A stretch of DNA of 64,000 bases from a virus (lineage: Duplodnaviria > Caudoviricetes), in IMG/VR virus record IMGVR_UViG_3300050336_000035, positions 1-64,000 of that record, one strand, 5' to 3'. Both the position numbers and the translations under genes were made by a program. The notes below the pieces were generated by a model. That model ran no database searches. It was not told the DNA's origin and saw only the letters and a program-made list of their open reading frames with translations. Position 1 is the first letter of the stretch; each line of letters opens with the position of its first letter. Shown here in pieces: positions 54,611 to 64,000 of the stretch.

Positions 54611-55810
54611 ATGTTATATAAAACAATGATAGTTCCTGTTAATTGTAATAAATCAGATTATAATTATCTTATGCAATGTAATAAGTATTCAGGAATAGTT
54701 TGGAATACTATTGTAAAAATGGATAAAGAAAACAGAGAAAAGTATGGTAAGTCTTTAACTCGTTCAGAGTTACAACATAGTATGAAGAAAAGTGTACCAA
54801 TAATTATGGCTATAAGTATAAATTATGTAATATTGAAGTATATAACTGCTAGAGATGCTATGTTTAGGTCTATGAAAGCGAAGCATAAAAATAGTAATAC
54901 TGTTAGATTACCATATAAAGAAAAGAAATTTTATAATACAATTTGGAGTTATCAAAATTTTAAGATAAATATATCTAAAAATTATATTACACTAGGGAAA
55001 CCAATACTAGTAAATGATAATGGTAAAAATCGAAAACAAAAACCAATTAAATGTAATATAAAAAATATTCCAAACAATATAGTAGAGATTGAATTGATTT
55101 ATCGTAATGGTTTAAAATTAGCCATTAAATATAAAGAAGAAAATAATAATGTTTTAATTCAATCCAATAATGAAGCAGCTATAGACCTTGGTGAAATACA
55201 TAGTATTACTTCTATTGATAGTAATGGTAATGCAATTATAATCACTGGTAGAAAGATTAGAGCTATTAAACAATTGAGAAATAAAGAGTTAGCTAAACTA
55301 AAAAGTCGTAGAAGTAAATGTGCTAAAAGGAGTAAGCAGTATAAGAAATATAGTAAGGCAATTTATAATCTCAAATATAATACTGACAATAGGATATTAG
55401 ATTGTGTTCATAAGATTACAAAGCTATATTTAGATTATTGTTTACAAAATAATATTTCAAAAGTATACTATGGTGACTTAGACAATTGTACAAGAAGTAC
55501 AAAAGAAAATAATCAAGGCAATACAATGGTAAGACAAAAACTAAGTCAATGGTGTTACGGACTAATTATGTTACAACTACAAAATAAACTATCAAGATAT
55601 GGAATTGAATTAGTAAAAGTTAAAGAATATTATACTTCAAAGAAATGTCCTATTTGCAGTAAGTTAAATAAACCTAATGGTAGAAATTATGAATGTGAGT
55701 GTGGTTATAAAATGCATAGAGATGTCAATGGAGCTATAAATATTCTTAATGATAACAGTAATTGGTATGTAGATAGATATACTAATCTAAAGTATCTACG
55801 TATAGCGTAA
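54611..55810 (+). CDS. tnpB: TnpB family nuclease with rearranged RuvC-II, no TnpA
   Basis: AAIDLG, YYGDL (G at canonical E), VKEYYTSKKCPIC, HRDVNGAINIL. Confidence 0.88.
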   Translation: MLYKTMIVPVNCNKSDYNYLMQCNKYSGIVWNTIVKMDKENREKYGKSLTRSELQHSMKKSVPIIMAISINYVILKYITARDAMFRSMKAKHKNSNTVRLPYKEKKFYNTIWSYQNFKINISKNYITLGKPILVNDNGKNRKQKPIKCNIKNIPNNIVEIELIYRNGLKLAIKYKEENNNVLIQSNNEAAIDLGEIHSITSIDSNGNAIIITGRKIRAIKQLRNKELAKLKSRRSKCAKRSKQYKKYSKAIYNLKYNTDNRILDCVHKITKLYLDYCLQNNISKVYYGDLDNCTRSTKENNQGNTMVRQKLSQWCYGLIMLQLQNKLSRYGIELVKVKEYYTSKKCPICSKLNKPNGRNYECECGYKMHRDVNGAINILNDNSNWYVDRYTNLKYLRIA

Positions 55811-56101: not shown

Positions 56102-56120
56102 ATAGAAAGGTCGTGTACAT

Positions 56121-56607: not shown

Positions 56608-57219
56608 ATGGTAGAATTCATTCTAGGGACATTTATAGTAGTTTTAATTCGCAATAAGATAGTCAGTAATATAAACAGTAAGGCAGAAAAAGAATTGTAT
56701 TCTGTGTATCATTTTAAGCCTTTGTTTAAACATTGGAGTATTTATCCATCATTGATTTGTGTTATTATTTACTTATATTTAGAATATTGTGTTTTTAGAA
56801 GAAATTTTTGGTTTATTCCATATCAGCAATGGTTTAGAATAATTACTATTATGTCATATGTTCCATTAGTTTATAAATATAAGTTGCTTGAGAGTATATC
56901 CAAAAAGCATAAAAGCATCTGTTTTTCACCTTATTTAATTTCTCTTTATCTTATCCTTTTAGGTACAGGGTTAAATTTGATAGCTATGGCATATAACAAT
57001 TGGAAAATGCCTATATTTCCAACGATGACGTATTCCACAGGTTACGCGACTACTTTTATTGATAATAAGCATATTCTTGGAAACATGTATACAAAATTAA
57101 TTCCTTTGACTGATATATTTGATAGTGGATATATGTGTTTTAGCTTAGGTGATGTATTTTTTAGAATGTTTAGTTCTATTTTAATATTTTTTTCAATAAA
57201 AAAAATAAATAAATATTAA
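56608..57219 (+). CDS. DUF5317-like membrane protein
   Basis: G..LN.IA..YNNWKMP...H...TKL.PLTDIF...FSLGD. Confidence 0.78.
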   Translation: MVEFILGTFIVVLIRNKIVSNINSKAEKELYSVYHFKPLFKHWSIYPSLICVIIYLYLEYCVFRRNFWFIPYQQWFRIITIMSYVPLVYKYKLLESISKKHKSICFSPYLISLYLILLGTGLNLIAMAYNNWKMPIFPTMTYSTGYATTFIDNKHILGNMYTKLIPLTDIFDSGYMCFSLGDVFFRMFSSILIFFSIKKINKY

Positions 57220-57303: not shown

Positions 57304-58092
57304 ATGCAAAATTGGATTAACGCTTTATTGAATTGTTTATTAGTATCAATTCCAGAAGAAATAGTATGGGTTACATTAACTCTTGTTTTACTAAAAAGAT
57401 TTGATTTATTAGATTGGCGAAGATGGAAACGAAATATAAAGTGGTTAAGTATTCCAATTATACCTGTAGCAATTTCTATTAATATATTAAAATATATTTT
57501 TGTTATACCTAGACTAGTAATGAGTATTAGTACATTAATTATGTTAATTTTATTGATTATTTATATAGTTAAAAAAACTGATAAGCTTAAAAATACTAAA
57601 ATATACAAAGTTATATTATTTACATTGTTTGGAAGTTGCTTAATTGCTTTTACTGAGGCAATTTATATTCCTATTATACTATTTATGACAAATTTAAAAA
57701 TATCCCAAATAAATATAGATATTTTGAACAATTTTTTATTTTCATTACCAGAAAGAATAATTCAAATTTGTTTTATTTTATACATCATTTATGGCAAAAC
57801 ATATAAGTTAAAATATAACTATGGTTTTAAAATTTTTGAAAATAAACTTAATGTTTTTAGTTTATTTTCAATTATTATAATTTTAGTAGTATTTTGGTTA
57901 ATATCATTAAATGTTTTTTCTAATCAGGGTATATTTAGAGATTTCCCTATTAATTTAAAAATTTTATTAGGTACTGCAATGAATCTTATGCCAACTCTAT
58001 TTTTTGTAATAATGGTTATTAATAATTTAACTTTTATTCAAAAAAATATTCAAATAGAACAAAAATACTCAGATATGTTGGATGAAAAATAG
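57304..58092 (+). CDS. Polytopic membrane protein, possibly AgrC-sensor-like, no kinase domain
   Basis: About 7 hydrophobic helices; own promoter (57228); directly upstream of agrD. Confidence 0.6.
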   Translation: MQNWINALLNCLLVSIPEEIVWVTLTLVLLKRFDLLDWRRWKRNIKWLSIPIIPVAISINILKYIFVIPRLVMSISTLIMLILLIIYIVKKTDKLKNTKIYKVILFTLFGSCLIAFTEAIYIPIILFMTNLKISQINIDILNNFLFSLPERIIQICFILYIIYGKTYKLKYNYGFKIFENKLNVFSLFSIIIILVVFWLISLNVFSNQGIFRDFPINLKILLGTAMNLMPTLFFVIMVINNLTFIQKNIQIEQKYSDMLDEK

Positions 58093-58110: not shown

Positions 58111-58230
58111 ATGAAAAAATTGAGTGTTATTGTCAGCTTAGTTACACTTATAGGTATTATATGCTCAAATATGGTGGCTTCATGGTACTTGCTTAGTCAG
58201 CCAGAAACTCCATCAATACTTTCAAAGTAA
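58111..58230 (+). CDS. agrD: AgrD-type cyclic autoinducer peptide precursor (39 aa)
   Basis: Not in ORF track. MKKLSVIVSLVTLIGIICSNMVASWYLLSQPETPSILSK matches the clostridial AgrD pattern A-[C/S]xxxx-xQPExP; agrB 1.1 kb downstream. Confidence 0.85.
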   Translation: MKKLSVIVSLVTLIGIICSNMVASWYLLSQPETPSILSK

Positions 58231-58261: not shown

Positions 58262-58305
58262 TTTATATCGTATAGGAAACTTATTAAAGCCCTATACGAT
58301 ATAAA
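58262..58305 (+). terminator. Long hairpin after agrD
   Basis: TTTATATCGTATAGG / CCTATACGATATAAA 15-bp perfect stem. Confidence 0.65.
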
Positions 58306-58394
58306 TATAATTATTTTAAAAAAACTATTGACAATGATTTGGTAATAATATAAAATAATTACATAAACGATATTACAAAAAGGAGTTTAAAAAA

Positions 58395-59273
58395 ATGTTA
58401 GAATTGTTTAGAAAATTTAATGTGAATGAGATTACCAATATACCAACAGAAATTGAAATAATAAATAAAAGATTATCGTATGAATTAGAAACTGTACTAC
58501 AAGATACAACAATAAATATGTTTGCTAGACGTTGCAACCTATTAAGTACGATTCAACTAGAAGATATTTTAAATTTAAAGCTTACTCAGAAACCATCAAG
58601 AGAGCTACTTAGAATTATAGCTAGTAACAGTAATGGAAATGTTACATATAGAAGGCTATATGAAATTTGCAATTATTCTGAATTTGATGAAGAAGAAGAC
58701 AAACGGTGGTTGGATTTTAAACCGAAAAGGGGTCAGATATATTATATAGATTTAGGATTTTCAATTGATAGTGAACAGAGTGGAGTAAGACCATGCTTAA
58801 TATTACAGAATGATGTTGGTAATGATCGAAGTACGACATTAGTGGTTCTCCCAATTTCGACACGATTAAAAAAATTCGGAAAAACACATGTAAGACTTAC
58901 TCGTGAAAACGGGTTAAGAGAAGAATCATATATATTAGCTGAACAAATACGTGTAGTAAGTAAACGTAGAATATATTATAGTGGTTGTGCAAATTTAATT
59001 ACAACTTTATCAGAAGAAAAAATGGAAGAAGTAAGAGTAGCTGTCGAGTTTGAATTAGGTCTTGAAGATTTATCATTTAATGAAGAAAAGGCTTATATAT
59101 TAGCTAATGCAGTAAGAACTTTAAAAAGAAATATTAAAGTAAAACAATCAAGAGATTTAATTGACATATATAAAGAAAAATATAATGAATTCATATCATA
59201 TTGTAAAAAGTTTAACAGAGACCCAGAGGTTGTTTATAGTAGCTATAAAACCTTAGATATTCAATATGCTTAA
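58395..59273 (+). CDS. mazF: XRE-like HTH fused to MazF/PemK endoribonuclease
   Basis: KRGQIYYIDL...SEQSGVRPCLILQNDVGN...PIST...THV...ILAEQIRVVSKRRI; N-terminal INMFARRC...KPSRELLRIIA...VTY..L; own promoter at 58328. Confidence 0.85.
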   Translation: MLELFRKFNVNEITNIPTEIEIINKRLSYELETVLQDTTINMFARRCNLLSTIQLEDILNLKLTQKPSRELLRIIASNSNGNVTYRRLYEICNYSEFDEEEDKRWLDFKPKRGQIYYIDLGFSIDSEQSGVRPCLILQNDVGNDRSTTLVVLPISTRLKKFGKTHVRLTRENGLREESYILAEQIRVVSKRRIYYSGCANLITTLSEEKMEEVRVAVEFELGLEDLSFNEEKAYILANAVRTLKRNIKVKQSRDLIDIYKEKYNEFISYCKKFNRDPEVVYSSYKTLDIQYA

Positions 59274-59294: not shown

Positions 59295-59948
59295 ATGCAA
59301 AATATATTTACATTTAAGTTTATAGATGCTTGGTCAATATATTGTGCAAAACGATTATATGAACCAATTAAAGATAAACCAGAAATACTTAGACAACTAA
59401 AAGTATTAATTGAAAATATAAAACATGTAACATATGATGACAATGAATTAAATGAACAAAGTTATATAGATATTTTTCAATATGCTTTTAAAGCGATTTA
59501 TGGTGCAATTATTAAGGGTGGACTGTTACTGCTGATAGCATCGTTATTGAATATATTAGTACCAACCTTGGTAGTAACAGCTTCCTTTGGTATAATTAGG
59601 GTGTTTGCAGGAGGGTTACATTTTAAAAGTTATACTCTATGCACATATGTGTCATTAATTTGTTTCCTTATTGGAGGGGTAATAGGAAGTGCCTTTAAAT
59701 ATAATTTATATATTAATATAATAGTATATATCTTTGCATTAACTAACTTTTTATTATATGCTCCAGTAGAAAATGAAAATCTCCCTATCAAACCCCACAA
59801 AAAAATAATATTTAAACGAATAGCTATAGTAAATACAACTATATTGTTACTCTTAAACACAATATTCTTATACAATATATCTATAACAGTTGGTGTTTTT
59901 ATAGCAGGATTAATTACTCTTCCTATTTTTAATAGTAAATTTAAATAA
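59295..59948 (+). CDS. agrB: AgrB peptide-processing membrane protease
   Basis: IRVFAGGLHFKSYTLC (catalytic H and C) and YAPVEN. Confidence 0.9.
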   Translation: MQNIFTFKFIDAWSIYCAKRLYEPIKDKPEILRQLKVLIENIKHVTYDDNELNEQSYIDIFQYAFKAIYGAIIKGGLLLLIASLLNILVPTLVVTASFGIIRVFAGGLHFKSYTLCTYVSLICFLIGGVIGSAFKYNLYINIIVYIFALTNFLLYAPVENENLPIKPHKKIIFKRIAIVNTTILLLLNTIFLYNISITVGVFIAGLITLPIFNSKFK

Positions 59949-60097: not shown

Positions 60098-60145
60098 TTG
60101 CAAACAGGGAAATTAACATTTATAATTGATTTAGAACATATGTTC
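60098..60145 (+). promoter_or_regulatory. sigmaA promoter with LexA/SOS box
   Basis: TTGCAA-17-TATAAT, then GAACATATGTTC (60134-60145), an exact GAAC-N4-GTTC. Confidence 0.8.
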
Positions 60146-60167
60146 TTTTTAAGGAGGGAAAAAGAAA

Positions 60168-60443
60168 ATGAATTATTGTATGCAAGATTGTGAAACAGGG
60201 AACTTTGTATCAAGTAATTCAATTTTAATTGACGGAGGTAAATTATATTATTCTACTTTTACAGGTAGAGACCTATGTGGAGGGTTAGAATATAATTTAA
60301 CACAAGAACAGGCAGAAAAAAAGATGAGCAATTTTATAAAAAAAATGAACAAATATGGATTACATAAAAATTTAAAAATTGTAGGTGTAGATATTACCGC
60401 TTTAAACATAGGAAATATATATACTGTTGAGTATGTAATATAA
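60168..60443 (+). CDS. Hypothetical protein, probably SOS-inducible
   Basis: AAGGAGG RBS directly after the SOS box. Confidence 0.7.
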   Translation: MNYCMQDCETGNFVSSNSILIDGGKLYYSTFTGRDLCGGLEYNLTQEQAEKKMSNFIKKMNKYGLHKNLKIVGVDITALNIGNIYTVEYVI

Positions 60444-60559
60444 TTGAATAAATCTTAAAATAATTTGTTTATTAGCTTGACTTTTTGTACATAATATAAT
60501 ACAATTCAATTATTATATTAGATATTTACAATTATCTATTGAAAGGTGTGTATTGAAGT

Positions 60560-61900
60560 ATGTACAAAGAGAAGCAAGAACAACTGTATTCAAGGATTAA
60601 TAGTATTATAGCTAATACTGATTATCGAATATTTAAAGAAGCTGTAGGAACTGAGTTGAGAAAAAGAGGTCTAGATTCTAGCATCATAATATTAGCATCT
60701 GAAATTATCATGAAAAATGCTAAAGTTGAGCAATTAGTTAATGAAGAAGATAATGATATAAAATTATTATTTTTCTTTGCTGATGCTCTTAATAAGGCTT
60801 TAAGTGATAATGAAGGTGCTATTATTATTTTAGAAAATTATTTTTTAAAAAGTGAAATAGAAGAATTAACGGATTATACAATTAAAGAAGGTAAAGAAAG
60901 TATTTTTCCACTTACAATTTATGATGTTACTCAGTTTAATGACCACCATTGGGAAGGGAGTATAACTGCTCAATATCAAGATAAGTGCAATAGTTATAGA
61001 GTACCTTATTATAATCCTAATACACAGCGTAACCCCAAGAGAACAAAGAAGGGTGATAAAATAAATGTTGACCCTAAAAAAGTACTTGCTATTAGAGATG
61101 AATTATTAAGTGGAGAGTACGAAACAGATTCAATTATCTGGAATATTTTAAAAACTGGAGATGAAAAGTTTACTTATAATCCTAAAAATAGAACATTAAC
61201 AATATTTGAAGGAAGTATTATTAATATAGTTGATGGACAACACCGAAAAGAAGCTAATTCTGCTGCTATAGCTATTAATCCTAATTTGGATTACAAATGG
61301 CCTCTTAGTATTTTTAATGTTAGTGAGATTAAGGCACATAGTATAATGGTTCAGAAAAACAAACAGACGAAAATGCCTGAAGAATGGATTCAAACAAAAG
61401 ATTATAGTAGATATGAAAATGATGTTATTAGTAAGATGAAAGATGAAAAATCTAACCTTTTTAAAATTATGGGTGAAGATGAAAAACAAATTGCCAACAA
61501 TCAATCTTTAGTTAAAAAATCTAATATAGCATTAGCTATTAAAGAAATTTATCAAGAAGAAATATCTGATAATGATGACAGAAGACAACTAGCTAGATGG
61601 TTGTCAGAATTCTTTGATTATATGATAAAACTATATTCTTATGAATTTATTGAGGAGTCTTTAAAAGTAAAAGAAGTTAGTTTTATAAATTGGAAAAATA
61701 TGTTTTTTGGCTATATAGCGTTATCGAGAGCTTTGAGAAATAAAGATAATTGGCGTGAAGTATTTAAAGAAAAAATGTCTTCTATAGATTTTAGTAATAC
61801 AAATCCATTATGGCAAACTTTTGGAATATTAAATACAAAAGATGCCAATGCAACTTTAAGGAAACATTTGTATAATTTATTTAAGGAAGGTGTTGAATAA
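60560..61900 (+). CDS. DGQHR/DndB-like ParB-fold protein (SPbeta YopQ/SroE-like)
   Basis: YNPNTQR...INIVDGQHR; upstream of and coupled to a recombinase-fold repressor. Confidence 0.7.
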   Translation: MYKEKQEQLYSRINSIIANTDYRIFKEAVGTELRKRGLDSSIIILASEIIMKNAKVEQLVNEEDNDIKLLFFFADALNKALSDNEGAIIILENYFLKSEIEELTDYTIKEGKESIFPLTIYDVTQFNDHHWEGSITAQYQDKCNSYRVPYYNPNTQRNPKRTKKGDKINVDPKKVLAIRDELLSGEYETDSIIWNILKTGDEKFTYNPKNRTLTIFEGSIINIVDGQHRKEANSAAIAINPNLDYKWPLSIFNVSEIKAHSIMVQKNKQTKMPEEWIQTKDYSRYENDVISKMKDEKSNLFKIMGEDEKQIANNQSLVKKSNIALAIKEIYQEEISDNDDRRQLARWLSEFFDYMIKLYSYEFIEESLKVKEVSFINWKNMFFGYIALSRALRNKDNWREVFKEKMSSIDFSNTNPLWQTFGILNTKDANATLRKHLYNLFKEGVE

Positions 61901-62937
61901 TGAGTTTTGAATATGTTAAATTTTCAAATATAGATGAATTAGTTTTTCAATATAACCAAGAATTGAAGAAAGAGTATTTAAGACAAAAACCATTAGAGAC
62001 AGCAAGAAGTGATTATAAAACTATGGTATCTGTTGATGAATATGAAACATTATTAAAAAAACCTGTATATGATTTTTCGCTAGTAGAACGAAATGAATTG
62101 ATGATGATGAAATTCAGAAATACTACTGTTCATGCAGTTCTTTCGACAGCTTCAAAGATTAAAGGATATATAGATTATTGTGTTAGAGCAGGTGAAGTAC
62201 CTCACAATCAAAATATTTTTGACACTTTTATTAAATCTGAAGCTATGAAATTTGTAAGTAAACATGCTACTGAATTTAGATATATAACTCCAGAACGGTT
62301 AAATGAATATATTCATATTTTAAAAAATTGGCAAGACAAATGTCTAATAAGATTAATAAATGAAGGGGTAAGGGGAAGAACGGTTAAAGGTGGAACATTA
62401 GAAGAAATTATTAATCTACAAATTAAACCTAATAGTGAAGACACAAAAAATTGTATTTTAAGATTAGTAGGTAATGATGGTTCTTTTCGAGAACTTCAAG
62501 TAACTCGTGAAGTAATGGATTTAGTTTTAATGACATATCAGTCAGAAGAATATTTACCAAATAACGGAATTGATGATAAATCTGTAGAAAAGAAAAAAGG
62601 CGCTAAAAAATATACAATTAATAGATATAAAAATTATGTATTTTGTGCTTTAGGAAATAGTAAATTTGGAACATTAAATCCAATAACAATAAATGCTAGA
62701 CTTCAAAAAATTCAGGAATATTGTGATAATCAATTTATTACTGTCTATAATTTATATATGAGTGGAATGATAACTAAAGCAATAGAAATTTACAAAGAAA
62801 AAGGTGAATTAACTTCACAAGATTATATAAATATTTGTTTTAAGTATAAATATGGTGGAGATACGCCTGAAAAATATATGTCTAAATTGAAATATGAAGT
62901 AGAAACCTATTTAAAAGGTGGTATTCAAGATGCTTGA
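61900..62937 (+). CDS. Degenerate tyrosine-recombinase-fold repressor (MrpR/YopR/SroF-like)
   Basis: SAM-like N-terminus (K.VYDFS..E...YIDYC), EGVRG...EIINL; HxxR box replaced by NLYMSG. Confidence 0.72.
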   Translation: MSFEYVKFSNIDELVFQYNQELKKEYLRQKPLETARSDYKTMVSVDEYETLLKKPVYDFSLVERNELMMMKFRNTTVHAVLSTASKIKGYIDYCVRAGEVPHNQNIFDTFIKSEAMKFVSKHATEFRYITPERLNEYIHILKNWQDKCLIRLINEGVRGRTVKGGTLEEIINLQIKPNSEDTKNCILRLVGNDGSFRELQVTREVMDLVLMTYQSEEYLPNNGIDDKSVEKKKGAKKYTINRYKNYVFCALGNSKFGTLNPITINARLQKIQEYCDNQFITVYNLYMSGMITKAIEIYKEKGELTSQDYINICFKYKYGGDTPEKYMSKLKYEVETYLKGGIQDA

Positions 62938-63379
62938 GTATTTAAATAGAAAAGAAAAGATTCTTGTTGGTCTAAAAAACGGATTGACTAACAAAGGATA
63001 TTCTTTTAAAACACTTGCAGGAATTAATGGTAAAATTGATTTATTACAAGAAATAAAAACAAATTATAACTATGAAGTTTTAAAGAATCTTATTGAAAGT
63101 ACAAATTACTCTATAATAAATCAAATCAAAGATGTAAAACATGGATTAGATAATGTTTCTATCATAAATGATAGGAAAAGTGATTTCTATTTATATGCTA
63201 TTAAAACAGATGATATTAAAGAAAAAGATAATGAAGTTTTAAGAGAATCTTTTCTAAGTGATAATACATTAATTTATATTGCTGAAAAAAGCATTGGAAA
63301 TTTTTATGTTATTTTTAGTAAAAAGAAATATGAAGGTAAACACGAATATATTGCTAATCGTTGGCAGCAAGGGAGATAA
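62930..63379 (+). CDS. Hypothetical protein
   Basis: Start moved to MLEY, overlapping previous stop. Confidence 0.6.
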   Translation: MLEYLNRKEKILVGLKNGLTNKGYSFKTLAGINGKIDLLQEIKTNYNYEVLKNLIESTNYSIINQIKDVKHGLDNVSIINDRKSDFYLYAIKTDDIKEKDNEVLRESFLSDNTLIYIAEKSIGNFYVIFSKKKYEGKHEYIANRWQQGR

Positions 63380-63383
63380 TACT

Positions 63384-63791
63384 ATGAATATAGGAGAAAA
63401 AATTCAAAAATTAAAAGAATCTATGAATTTTAAGGATTATCAAGAGTTTGGAAAAGCAGTAGGACTACCTGGAGATTGGATAAAAGATGCTTTATCAAAA
63501 AAAGAATCAATCACTACAGTTGATATTACTAGATTAATTAAAATTGCAGAATACTTTAATGTTACATTAGATTGGTTGTTAAAAGATAATAATGAATGGG
63601 TTATAAAGTATAAAGAAGGATTTAAAGAAGGACTTACATCTGATGATATAGGCATAATGCTGGATGAAATTGATAATAAATTATGTGAAACGAATAATAA
63701 ATTTTATGGCTATAATATGAATAAAGATACTATAATTTTATGTAAAGATGCTTTAGATGAAGTGAAAAAGTTAATTAAAGATAATTTATAA
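63384..63791 (+). CDS. XRE-family HTH repressor
   Basis: IGEKIQKLK...LIKIAEYFNVTLDWLL. Confidence 0.82.
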   Translation: MNIGEKIQKLKESMNFKDYQEFGKAVGLPGDWIKDALSKKESITTVDITRLIKIAEYFNVTLDWLLKDNNEWVIKYKEGFKEGLTSDDIGIMLDEIDNKLCETNNKFYGYNMNKDTIILCKDALDEVKKLIKDNL

Positions 63792-64000
63792 TAATATATA
63801 AGGGCTATAAGCCCTTATTACAAGATTAAGTGTAATAAATTTTCCTCTGACAATGATGTCATCTCTAAATACCTCTATTACATAAGAATTACTTAAGGGG
63901 ATGACAGAATGCAGTTTAGAAAAATAGAACAGAATAAAGTGTATGAAACATGGGAGTTTAGAAGTAAAAATGGATTAGTTGCATACATATTTAGAATGCC

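Follow-up and report, generated by a model that had tools for sequence, protein, structure and literature searches.

A MazF-family protein with an XRE-like N-terminal domain among agr-type signalling genes upstream of an SPbeta-type repressor pair in a large phage genome

The phage record IMGVR_UViG_3300050336_000035 is a complete genome of 167,493 bp with direct terminal repeats. Its first 64 kb (the window: the whole stretch analysed, 64,000 nucleotides, in whose numbering coordinates are given) contain a plus-strand open reading frame (ORF) for a protein in which a MazF/PemK endoribonuclease core is flanked by an N-terminal domain with the predicted fold of XRE-type helix-turn-helix (HTH) proteins and by a C-terminal helical tail; it is called HTH-MazF below. 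A preliminary description of this DNA, made from the letters alone, had presented the gene, at exactly the positions found here, as an orphan MazF fused to an XRE-like HTH and a helical tail, co-transcribed with agrB and lacking a MazE. The genes around it run in the order DUF5317 protein, 262-residue membrane protein, AgrD-like peptide, hairpin, promoter, HTH-MazF, AgrB, a 91-residue protein (p91), a DndB-like protein, an MrpR-type protein and two further genes. The parts of the HTH-MazF gene are as follows.

58395..59273, plus strand: HTH-MazF-tail ORF, 292 residues
58437..58691, plus strand: N-terminal five-helix domain of XRE-like predicted fold, residues 15-99, AlphaFold2 predicted local distance difference test (pLDDT) 85-92
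58668..58724, plus strand: acidic linker SEFDEEEDKRW, residues 92-110, with conserved Asp residues and Trp105
58716..59069, plus strand: MazF/PemK endoribonuclease core, residues 108-225, recognised by Pfam, fold and sequence
59070..59270, plus strand: C-terminal three-helix tail, residues 226-292, which has a YCxK motif and ends in [YF]-A

The central part is readily recognised. Residues 111-217 match Pfam PemK_toxin (PF02452) with an expectation value (E) of 6.6e-25 and 87.9 bits (cut-off 23.1), the protein matches PHROG 1936 (E 1.8e-26), and a phmmer search of solved structures aligns residues 111-225 with Bacillus subtilis MazF/EndoA (PDB 4MDX/1NE8; E 6e-18), the SEQSGVRP, PIST and EQIR stretches singled out in the preliminary description as NdoA-like all being present and aligned. 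An AlphaFold2 model built from an alignment of 31 relatives (mean pLDDT 86.8) divides the protein into the three proposed parts: five helices over residues 19-91, a MazF barrel over 108-225 and three long helices over 230-291. The barrel has the SH3-like MazF fold (4hke, 1ne8, 4mdx and 4mzm; Z 19.5, root-mean-square deviation 1.7), and Foldseek places it at 39-42% identity to the B. subtilis, B. anthracis, B. cereus and S. aureus enzymes, with template modelling (TM) scores by target of 0.88-0.93. R132 aligns with the Arg of GVRP and S155 with the Thr of AAIT in B. subtilis MazF, whose catalytic pair we take to be R25 and T48 (numbering after Simanshu 2013). All 31 relatives have this Arg and either Thr or Ser at position 155, and the SEQ, THV and EQ motifs are kept as well; because the family, fold and sequence matches are strong and the catalytic residues are retained throughout, the RNase is probably active. 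The likeness to B. subtilis MazF (EndoA/NdoA; 4MDX, 1NE8, 4ME7) and S. aureus MazF thus covers fold, catalytic pair and the SEQ/THV/EQIR motifs; unlike them, the phage protein has about 108 additional N-terminal and 67 additional C-terminal residues, and no mazE gene. These extensions, put at about 105 and 65 residues beforehand, are both kept in the full-length relatives, 12 of them close and about 19 more distant.

For the N-terminal domain, the claim of an HTH stands as to predicted fold and not as to recognisable sequence. All non-MazF structural matches to residues 15-99 of the model are XRE-type HTH proteins, among them 2ofy (Z 9.8), the N-domain of CapH (7t5u; Z 8.1, root-mean-square deviation 1.9), SinR, the 434 repressor, ImmR, HigA and HipB; about 25 further XRE proteins match over the same residues at Z 6.4-8, values that helical domains can reach by chance. 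HTH sequence models gave no match to the domain in this protein, HTH_3 is matched by one of the 31 relatives (E 0.07), and a profile of the domain found nothing significant in the PDB. Since sequence models fail to see the domain, the XRE assignment is a statement about the fold of a predicted model. DNA binding by this domain, which is net acidic (charge -4), is putative. Homology of the domain to SPbeta YopO (SroC) was considered and rejected, no similarity being found even by profile search.

In the linker that follows, D98, D102 and W105 are invariant in the close family, and pLDDT falls to 68-73. The tail is predicted as helices 230-250, 253-272 and 277-291 (pLDDT about 90); its structural matches are generic helical bundles only, and it has no sequence relatives in the PDB, Pfam or PHROGs. 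It is kept in most relatives and is shorter in four loci (L015-L018; such numbers denote related loci where one must be told from another). Its net charge is +4 here, with a family mean of +0.7: with the tail net positive in this protein and near neutral across the family, a role as an acidic RNA mimic was rejected. In nearly all relatives, as here (59250-59270), an aromatic residue followed by Ala stands 0-3 residues from the C-terminus (QYA, YAM, VFA, AYAR, YAV), a possible degradation tag or docking peptide. The one stand-alone tail found (P0170, 92 residues), considered as a split antitoxin, begins at the edge of a contig 938 bp long and is in all likelihood a fragment.

No ORF of antitoxin size flanks the HTH-MazF gene, the 39-residue ORF upstream being AgrD-like and the gene downstream agrB. 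The absence of a MazE extends to the genome as a whole: its 167,493 bp contain no AbrB/MazE-type (PF04014) match, and the single ribbon-helix-helix match, weak and below cut-off, lies at 151.4 kb, 92 kb away. The locus therefore differs from canonical type II MazEF, in which a MazE gene of AbrB or ribbon-helix-helix type would be adjacent. Single-chain toxin-antitoxins exist, such as CapRel-SJ46 and EzeT, in which toxin and neutralising part share one polypeptide; HTH-MazF is like these in having a putative neutralising part in the same chain and no separate antitoxin gene, and unlike them in its toxin family. That HTH-MazF is an antitoxin-toxin fusion is possible, because type II antitoxins are usually built in this way, with a flexible acidic segment behind a DNA-binding domain; the acidic linker may then be the toxin-neutralising segment, and one of the flanking parts probably restrains the RNase until a signal or proteolysis frees it. 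With the XRE-type antitoxins HigA, HipB and MqsA, and with CapH, the protein shares the predicted five-helix fold (Z 6.5-8.1 to HigA, HipB and CapH) followed by an acidic, poorly ordered segment; it differs from them in the lack of a sequence-level match, in the covalent join to the toxin and in its net negative charge.

In one subclade of relatives a family of about 100 residues is encoded directly 3' of the HTH-MazF gene (L004:6895-7200, L007:5952-6263, L011, L012 and L013/L014), and in L008 a different ORF of 117 residues overlaps the end of the MazF gene. The products could be trans-acting partners in those phages; as the missing antitoxin the 100-residue family (L004, L007, L011-L014) was rejected, no homologue being present in this genome.

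Upstream and downstream, HTH-MazF is embedded in genes of agr type.

56608..57219, plus strand: DUF5317 membrane protein, first gene of the module (Pfam DUF5317, E 7e-12)
57304..58092, plus strand: 262-residue polytopic membrane protein, candidate kinase-less AgrC-like sensor
58111..58230, plus strand: AgrD-like propeptide of 39 residues, predicted ring SWYLL closed through Ser
58262..58305, plus strand: stable terminator-like hairpin after agrD (-18.6 kcal/mol, z -6.3)
58328..58356, plus strand: promoter-like site of the HTH-mazF-agrB unit, TTGACA-17-TAAAAT, 11/12
58360..58365, plus strand: TACATA hexamer within the leader or at its start, 3 nt past the -10 box
59295..59948, plus strand: AgrB-like peptide-processing membrane protease (Pfam AgrB, PF04647, E 1.9e-29)

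AgrB, the sole one in the genome, and the AgrD-like peptide flank HTH-MazF, so the connection to agr genes drawn in the preliminary description is real. TIGR04223 scores the peptide below its cut-off (E 0.014, 15.6 against 19 bits), and its AgrD-like nature becomes convincing by comparison: a peptide of the form A-S-x4-[NHSY]-[QE]-P-x-x-P-x-x-[LM]-x-K occurs in 17 of 17 related loci, with a conserved ring Ser (Cys in L008 only) and four hypervariable ring residues (SWYLL, SWLML, SWYLF, SIGWF, SHSML, SFWIF and others). The hypervariable rings resemble specificity groups. The 262-residue membrane protein matches no Pfam or NCBIfam family; its ESM Atlas model superposes on an AgrC-type histidine-kinase cluster, 98% of whose members contain HATPase_c_5, with a TM score of 0.61 over 205 residues, making it a candidate for the membrane (sensor) half of such a kinase. 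Its sequence relatives are all of 262-286 residues and lack a kinase domain, kinase-bearing relatives having been sought and not found among proteins of 137-489 and 490-2000 residues, and its gene adjoins that of HTH-MazF in 16 loci. The DUF5317 gene holds the same position in most related loci. Of canonical agr, AgrB and an AgrD-like peptide are present; an AgrC-type kinase domain (HATPase_c_5) and a LytTR regulator (AgrA type, PF04397) are absent from the whole genome. No match to SPbeta AimR was found in the genome either, although a distant homologue could escape the search.

The C-terminal cytoplasmic tail of the candidate sensor (58045-58089, residues 248-262) carries the motif I-x3-[YH]-x-x-M-L-D-[DE] in most relatives, which bears a loose likeness to the helix by which MazE and AimX bind MazF (M-x3-Y-x-E-M). 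A predicted complex of sensor residues 231-262 with two copies of HTH-MazF, run without controls, scored 0.00, which speaks neither for nor against such a contact.

The promoter-like site is the best promoter match in the region, and a 17-bp block around its -10 box, TGGTAATAATATAAAAT, is kept in four related phages, in agreement with the consensus promoter that the preliminary description had assigned to the gene. The HTH-MazF stop codon and the start of agrB are 21 nt apart with no terminator predicted between them, for which reason we infer co-transcription; of the earlier claim, the adjacency is observed and the shared transcript itself is deduced. Of 18 loci, 7 have a TACATA 28-42 nt ahead of the start codon, and an eighth has one at -59; many of these leader copies sit 2-5 nt past the -10 box or within the promoter spacer, so that they may not be transcribed whole and were not accepted as proven cleavage sites. 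Hairpins of differing sequence occupy the same place after agrD in L001, L003, L004 and L005 (z -2.3 to -8.0 across loci), and the layout, a hairpin just 5' of the HTH-mazF promoter, recalls the terminator between aimP and aimX.

The operon downstream identifies the type of module.

60560..61900, plus strand: YopQ/SroE homologue, DndB-like (Pfam DndB, E 2.9e-11)
61900..62937, plus strand: YopR/MrpR/SroF homologue, a master-repressor type of recombinase fold (Pfam MrpR_N_CB and MrpR_C_cat; PF22822, PF22823)
62918..63791, plus strand: two further genes, of 153 residues and of 170 residues with an HTH, within the TACATA-free span described below

The DndB-like protein aligns with SPbeta YopQ over 398 residues (BLASTP, 27% identity, E 1e-29), and the MrpR-type protein matches yopR of SPbeta-like phages over 84% of the query (tblastn, 26% identity); the 170-residue protein has transcriptional-regulator matches in PHROGs. 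An SroF-type repressor with SroE directly upstream, as in the SPbeta-type sro module, is thus present without an AimR match. In SPbeta the genes 5' of yopQ-yopR are aimR-aimP-(aimX)-yopMNOP, so that here the agr-type genes and the MazF fusion stand where SPbeta has arbitrium.

Twelve full-length relatives of HTH-MazF share 42-83% identity with it and about 19 more share 27-48%. HTH-bearing relatives (29-83% identity) are found in 17 loci, in every one of which sensor, AgrD, HTH-MazF, AgrB, DndB-like and MrpR-like genes follow one another in this order, and none of 35 phage loci with a plain MazF has the module. A search from the DndB-like gene yielded 11 further loci, most with sensor, HTH-MazF and AgrB. 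In two of these (L139 and L144) a plain MazF of 134-138 residues is followed directly by a p91-like gene and then the DndB-like gene, one other has a 117-residue MazF adjoining DUF5317, and three (L148, L152 and L153) lack a MazF in the 8 kb upstream. Because in L139 and L144 a plain MazF precedes this operon, the link between MazF and SroE-SroF is independent of the fusion: a MazF-family gene, fused or not, is a recurrent neighbour of the repressor pair. Some relatives have a second PemK/MazF gene a few kb from the fusion (L005:10848-11501, 217 residues; L007:1911-2360, 149 residues).

The MazF cut site in B. subtilis, Listeria and S. aureus is U^ACAUA (10.64898/2026.08.06.743204), and TACATA was therefore counted on the sense strand, where it corresponds to UACAUA in the RNA. 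In 15 loci, the 34.5 kb of DndB-like and MrpR-like genes contain none, against 1.31 per kb in flanking plus-strand DNA; their antisense strand contains 15, rising to 31 in the enlarged locus set. Among 640 hexamers none is as depleted in those first 15 loci as TACATA (none seen, 45 expected from the flanks), the next two in rank overlap it, and codon resampling with the proteins held fixed or synonymous shuffling within genes would leave 13.0 +/- 3.0 or 9.5 +/- 2.8 copies, respectively. The 26 diverged loci (59,028 bp) are free of it without exception, where within-gene synonymous shuffles give 15.2 +/- 3.3 (minimum 7 in 300). The sensor, HTH-MazF and AgrB genes, by the same kind of shuffle, are enriched, with 32 copies against 21.6 +/- 3.4. 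In the present genome the DndB-like and MrpR-like genes have neither TACATA nor TACAT on the sense strand, the borders of the TACATA-free span (60488 to 63879) coincide with those of the operon, and the 167-kb genome as a whole has 172 sense and 97 antisense copies. The 2.4 kb of SPbeta yopQ-yopR are likewise free of it. A longer DNA operator containing TACATA was rejected as the explanation: intergenic copies share no flanking consensus, and the depletion is one-stranded. Being one-stranded and beyond codon usage, the depletion points to a nuclease specific for UACAUA that exerts selection on the RNA, and it lends indirect support to the putative sequence-specific cleavage by HTH-MazF.

The hexamer is also concentrated between Shine-Dalgarno sequence and start codon, 11-fold over its genome frequency (16 genes), where it lies 5-9 bases before the start codon and is second in count among hexamers; examples are at 56116 (ORF 56121), 56441 (ORF 56446), 40535, 45377 and 47848. 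Related loci show a 7-fold enrichment, unrelated phage loci none. Cleavage at such a site would part the ribosome-binding site from its ORF.

In Bacillus phages, MazF has been tied to arbitrium. The arbitrium system of phi3T acts through host MazF (PMC10769878; 10.1101/2023.04.27.537455), transcripts of phi3T and SPbeta are rich in MazF sites (10.1101/2023.04.27.537455), and MazF is stated to degrade most phage mRNAs, that of the sroF operon excepted (10.1101/2025.11.27.690993). The context here, an SPbeta-type module with strand-specific loss of the cut site, likewise points to an active RNase working on phage RNA. We propose that HTH-MazF is an active, U^ACAUA-specific MazF of Bacillus type and a phage-borne part of an SPbeta-type lysis-lysogeny switch that favours lysogeny by sparing the repressor operon, a reading to which we give an even chance of being correct. 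The active enzyme would cut site-rich phage transcripts, including the mRNAs of the signalling module and its own, which would amount to negative feedback; the SroE-SroF operon, purged of UACAUA, would escape, and its survival would tip the cell toward lysogeny. The RNase would be supplied by the phage and the signal would be of agr type (AgrB and AgrD, with a Ser-closed ring) in place of arbitrium.

Several observations weigh against this. In this genome by itself the TACATA-free span is only the fourth longest, the signal coming from the comparison across loci. The same loss of the motif is seen in L148, L152 and L153, with no MazF in the 8 kb upstream, and in SPbeta yopQ-yopR, so that selection could come from a host MazF while the phage copy does something else. 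Specificity for UACAUA is deduced from the 39-42% identity to enzymes of known site and from the conserved contact motifs. No sequence model recognises the N-domain as an HTH, and with an N-domain of charge -4 and a tail that is not acidic (+4), neither part fits a textbook role cleanly. The fusion is also rare, full-length relatives occurring in 3 of about 185,000 reference genomes (two of them on contigs of 170-176 kb, the size of a phage), and both phage and host are uncultured.

One unlikely alternative is that the MazF domain serves as a decoy, binding host MazE and so freeing host MazF, with its own RNase activity secondary. This would be a MazF-fold version of the job done by the helical YopM/YopN (SroA/SroB), and it is compatible with the proposal of a repressor-sparing RNase. 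phi3T_93 binds MazE and releases MazF (PMC10769878), YopM is stated to bind MazE (PMC10516654), and there are no genes of yopM/yopN size between agrB and the DndB-like gene except p91. Host MazF would then drive the motif loss, which suits its occurrence where no phage MazF is near; but strict retention in 31 of 31 relatives of the catalytic Arg, the Thr/Ser and the substrate-contact motifs would be needless in a pure decoy.

That HTH-MazF is an ordinary phage-borne toxin (a moron), acting in superinfection exclusion, abortive infection or prophage/plasmid addiction, with an incidental position and a motif loss due to host MazF alone, we consider improbable. Growth inhibitors of MazF type are frequent among phages (69 phage records match, as do PHROG 1936 and 35650), BFVD holds extended PemK-like proteins of 200-260 residues, one from accession Q332J9, and some related phages (L005, L007) have a second PemK gene elsewhere. 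An incidental passenger would hardly explain why the gene order is the same in all 17 loci, at identities as low as 29%, even as the genes around it vary; addiction needs an antitoxin, for which no gene was found in the genome; and HTH-mazF apparently shares a transcription unit with agrB. Least credible is a transcription factor whose XRE-fold domain binds the block at its own promoter, and perhaps others, with the MazF domain for dimerisation or signal sensing in place of AgrA: the predicted fold, the genome-wide lack of a LytTR regulator or kinase and the 17-bp block around the -10 box conserved in four phages suit it, but the N-domain is net acidic in this clade and unseen by HTH sequence models, relatives without it hold the same position (L019, L139, L144) and the catalytic residues are conserved.

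The repressor-sparing RNase may also be taken further. In its boldest form, which we regard as doubtful, the locus is a circuit whose output is RNA cleavage, not transcription: a cyclic lactone peptide produced by the phage through AgrB and AgrD would act on a kinase-less AgrC-like receptor that directly gates a phage-encoded single-chain MazF toxin-antitoxin, which would then erase UACAUA-bearing lytic and signalling transcripts while SroE-SroF survives.

The parallel with the arbitrium-MazEF system of phi3T and SPbeta (AimR-AimP-AimX, SroA-F) is close in some respects and not in others. In both, homologues of SroE and SroF lie 3' of a peptide-signal module, a MazF-family RNase appears tied to the decision, and the repressor genes are without a MazF site, SPbeta yopQ-yopR included. 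Here, by contrast, there is no AimR match, the signal genes are AgrB, AgrD and a kinase-less membrane protein, MazF is phage-encoded and fused, and no equivalents of yopM-P are recognised. Phage-borne agr genes have precedents, and phage phiCDHM1 of C. difficile reportedly has a full agrC kinase gene. The same phage resembles the present one in carrying homologues of agrB and agrD (PMC3901668). Phage agr genes and the coupling of MazF to arbitrium in Bacillus phages are thus already known, and extended PemK-like proteins are present in databases, unstudied. A full-text search of the literature returned no paper on a phage-encoded HTH-MazF fusion in a lysogeny module, on a swap of agr for arbitrium next to SroE/SroF, or on the loss of MazF sites from a repressor operon across a phage lineage.

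As for the preliminary description as a whole, its anatomy (orphan MazF, XRE-like fold, helical tail, agr link, no MazE) is confirmed, the HTH call being one about predicted structure. Among the functions it suggested, an auto-inhibited RNase, a MazE titrator and a DNA-tethered regulator, the data do not discriminate. An N-terminus unlike an HTH, an ordinary antitoxin elsewhere and a lack of connection to agr genes, any of which would have spoken against it, were all looked for and none was found.

Between agrB and the repressor operon lie three features that concern the possible control of the latter.

60098-60126: p91 promoter-like site
60133..60146, plus strand: perfect palindrome AGAACATATGTTCT, LexA-box-like, over the start of the near-consensus p91 promoter
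60168..60443, plus strand: 91-residue protein p91, candidate SOS-controlled antirepressor

Homologues of p91 are encoded directly 5' of the DndB-like gene in L003, L010 and L139, and by analogy p91 is a candidate for the part that Sar, an antirepressor under LexA control, plays in phi3T (10.1101/2025.11.27.690993).

The genome has a GC content of about 26% and four tyrosine-integrase matches. Megablast of the region against GenBank phages gave no matches. The host would be a low-GC bacterium, the labels reading Bacillota or Clostridium. Just 5' of the module, at 54611-55810, is a TnpB-like gene with OrfB_IS605 and Cas12f1-like TNB domains. PADLOC matched no defence-system family other than DndB of the neighbouring gene.

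Work on phi3T and SPbeta has shown that a peptide signal of the phage acts by way of host MazF to steer lysis or lysogeny. The locus described here represents a separate lineage of large phages in which the SPbeta repressor pair has been kept, arbitrium has been swapped for an agr-type system and a MazF of the phage's own is carried, and it provides an independent, sequence-level argument that selective RNA cleavage sparing the repressor is a conserved switch logic. The strand-specific avoidance of UACAUA offers a computable signature for phage transcripts protected from, or targeted by, MazF. The set of parts is compact, a peptide, a kinase-less sensor and a fused RNase, and would allow the coupling of signal to RNase to be studied in a heterologous host.

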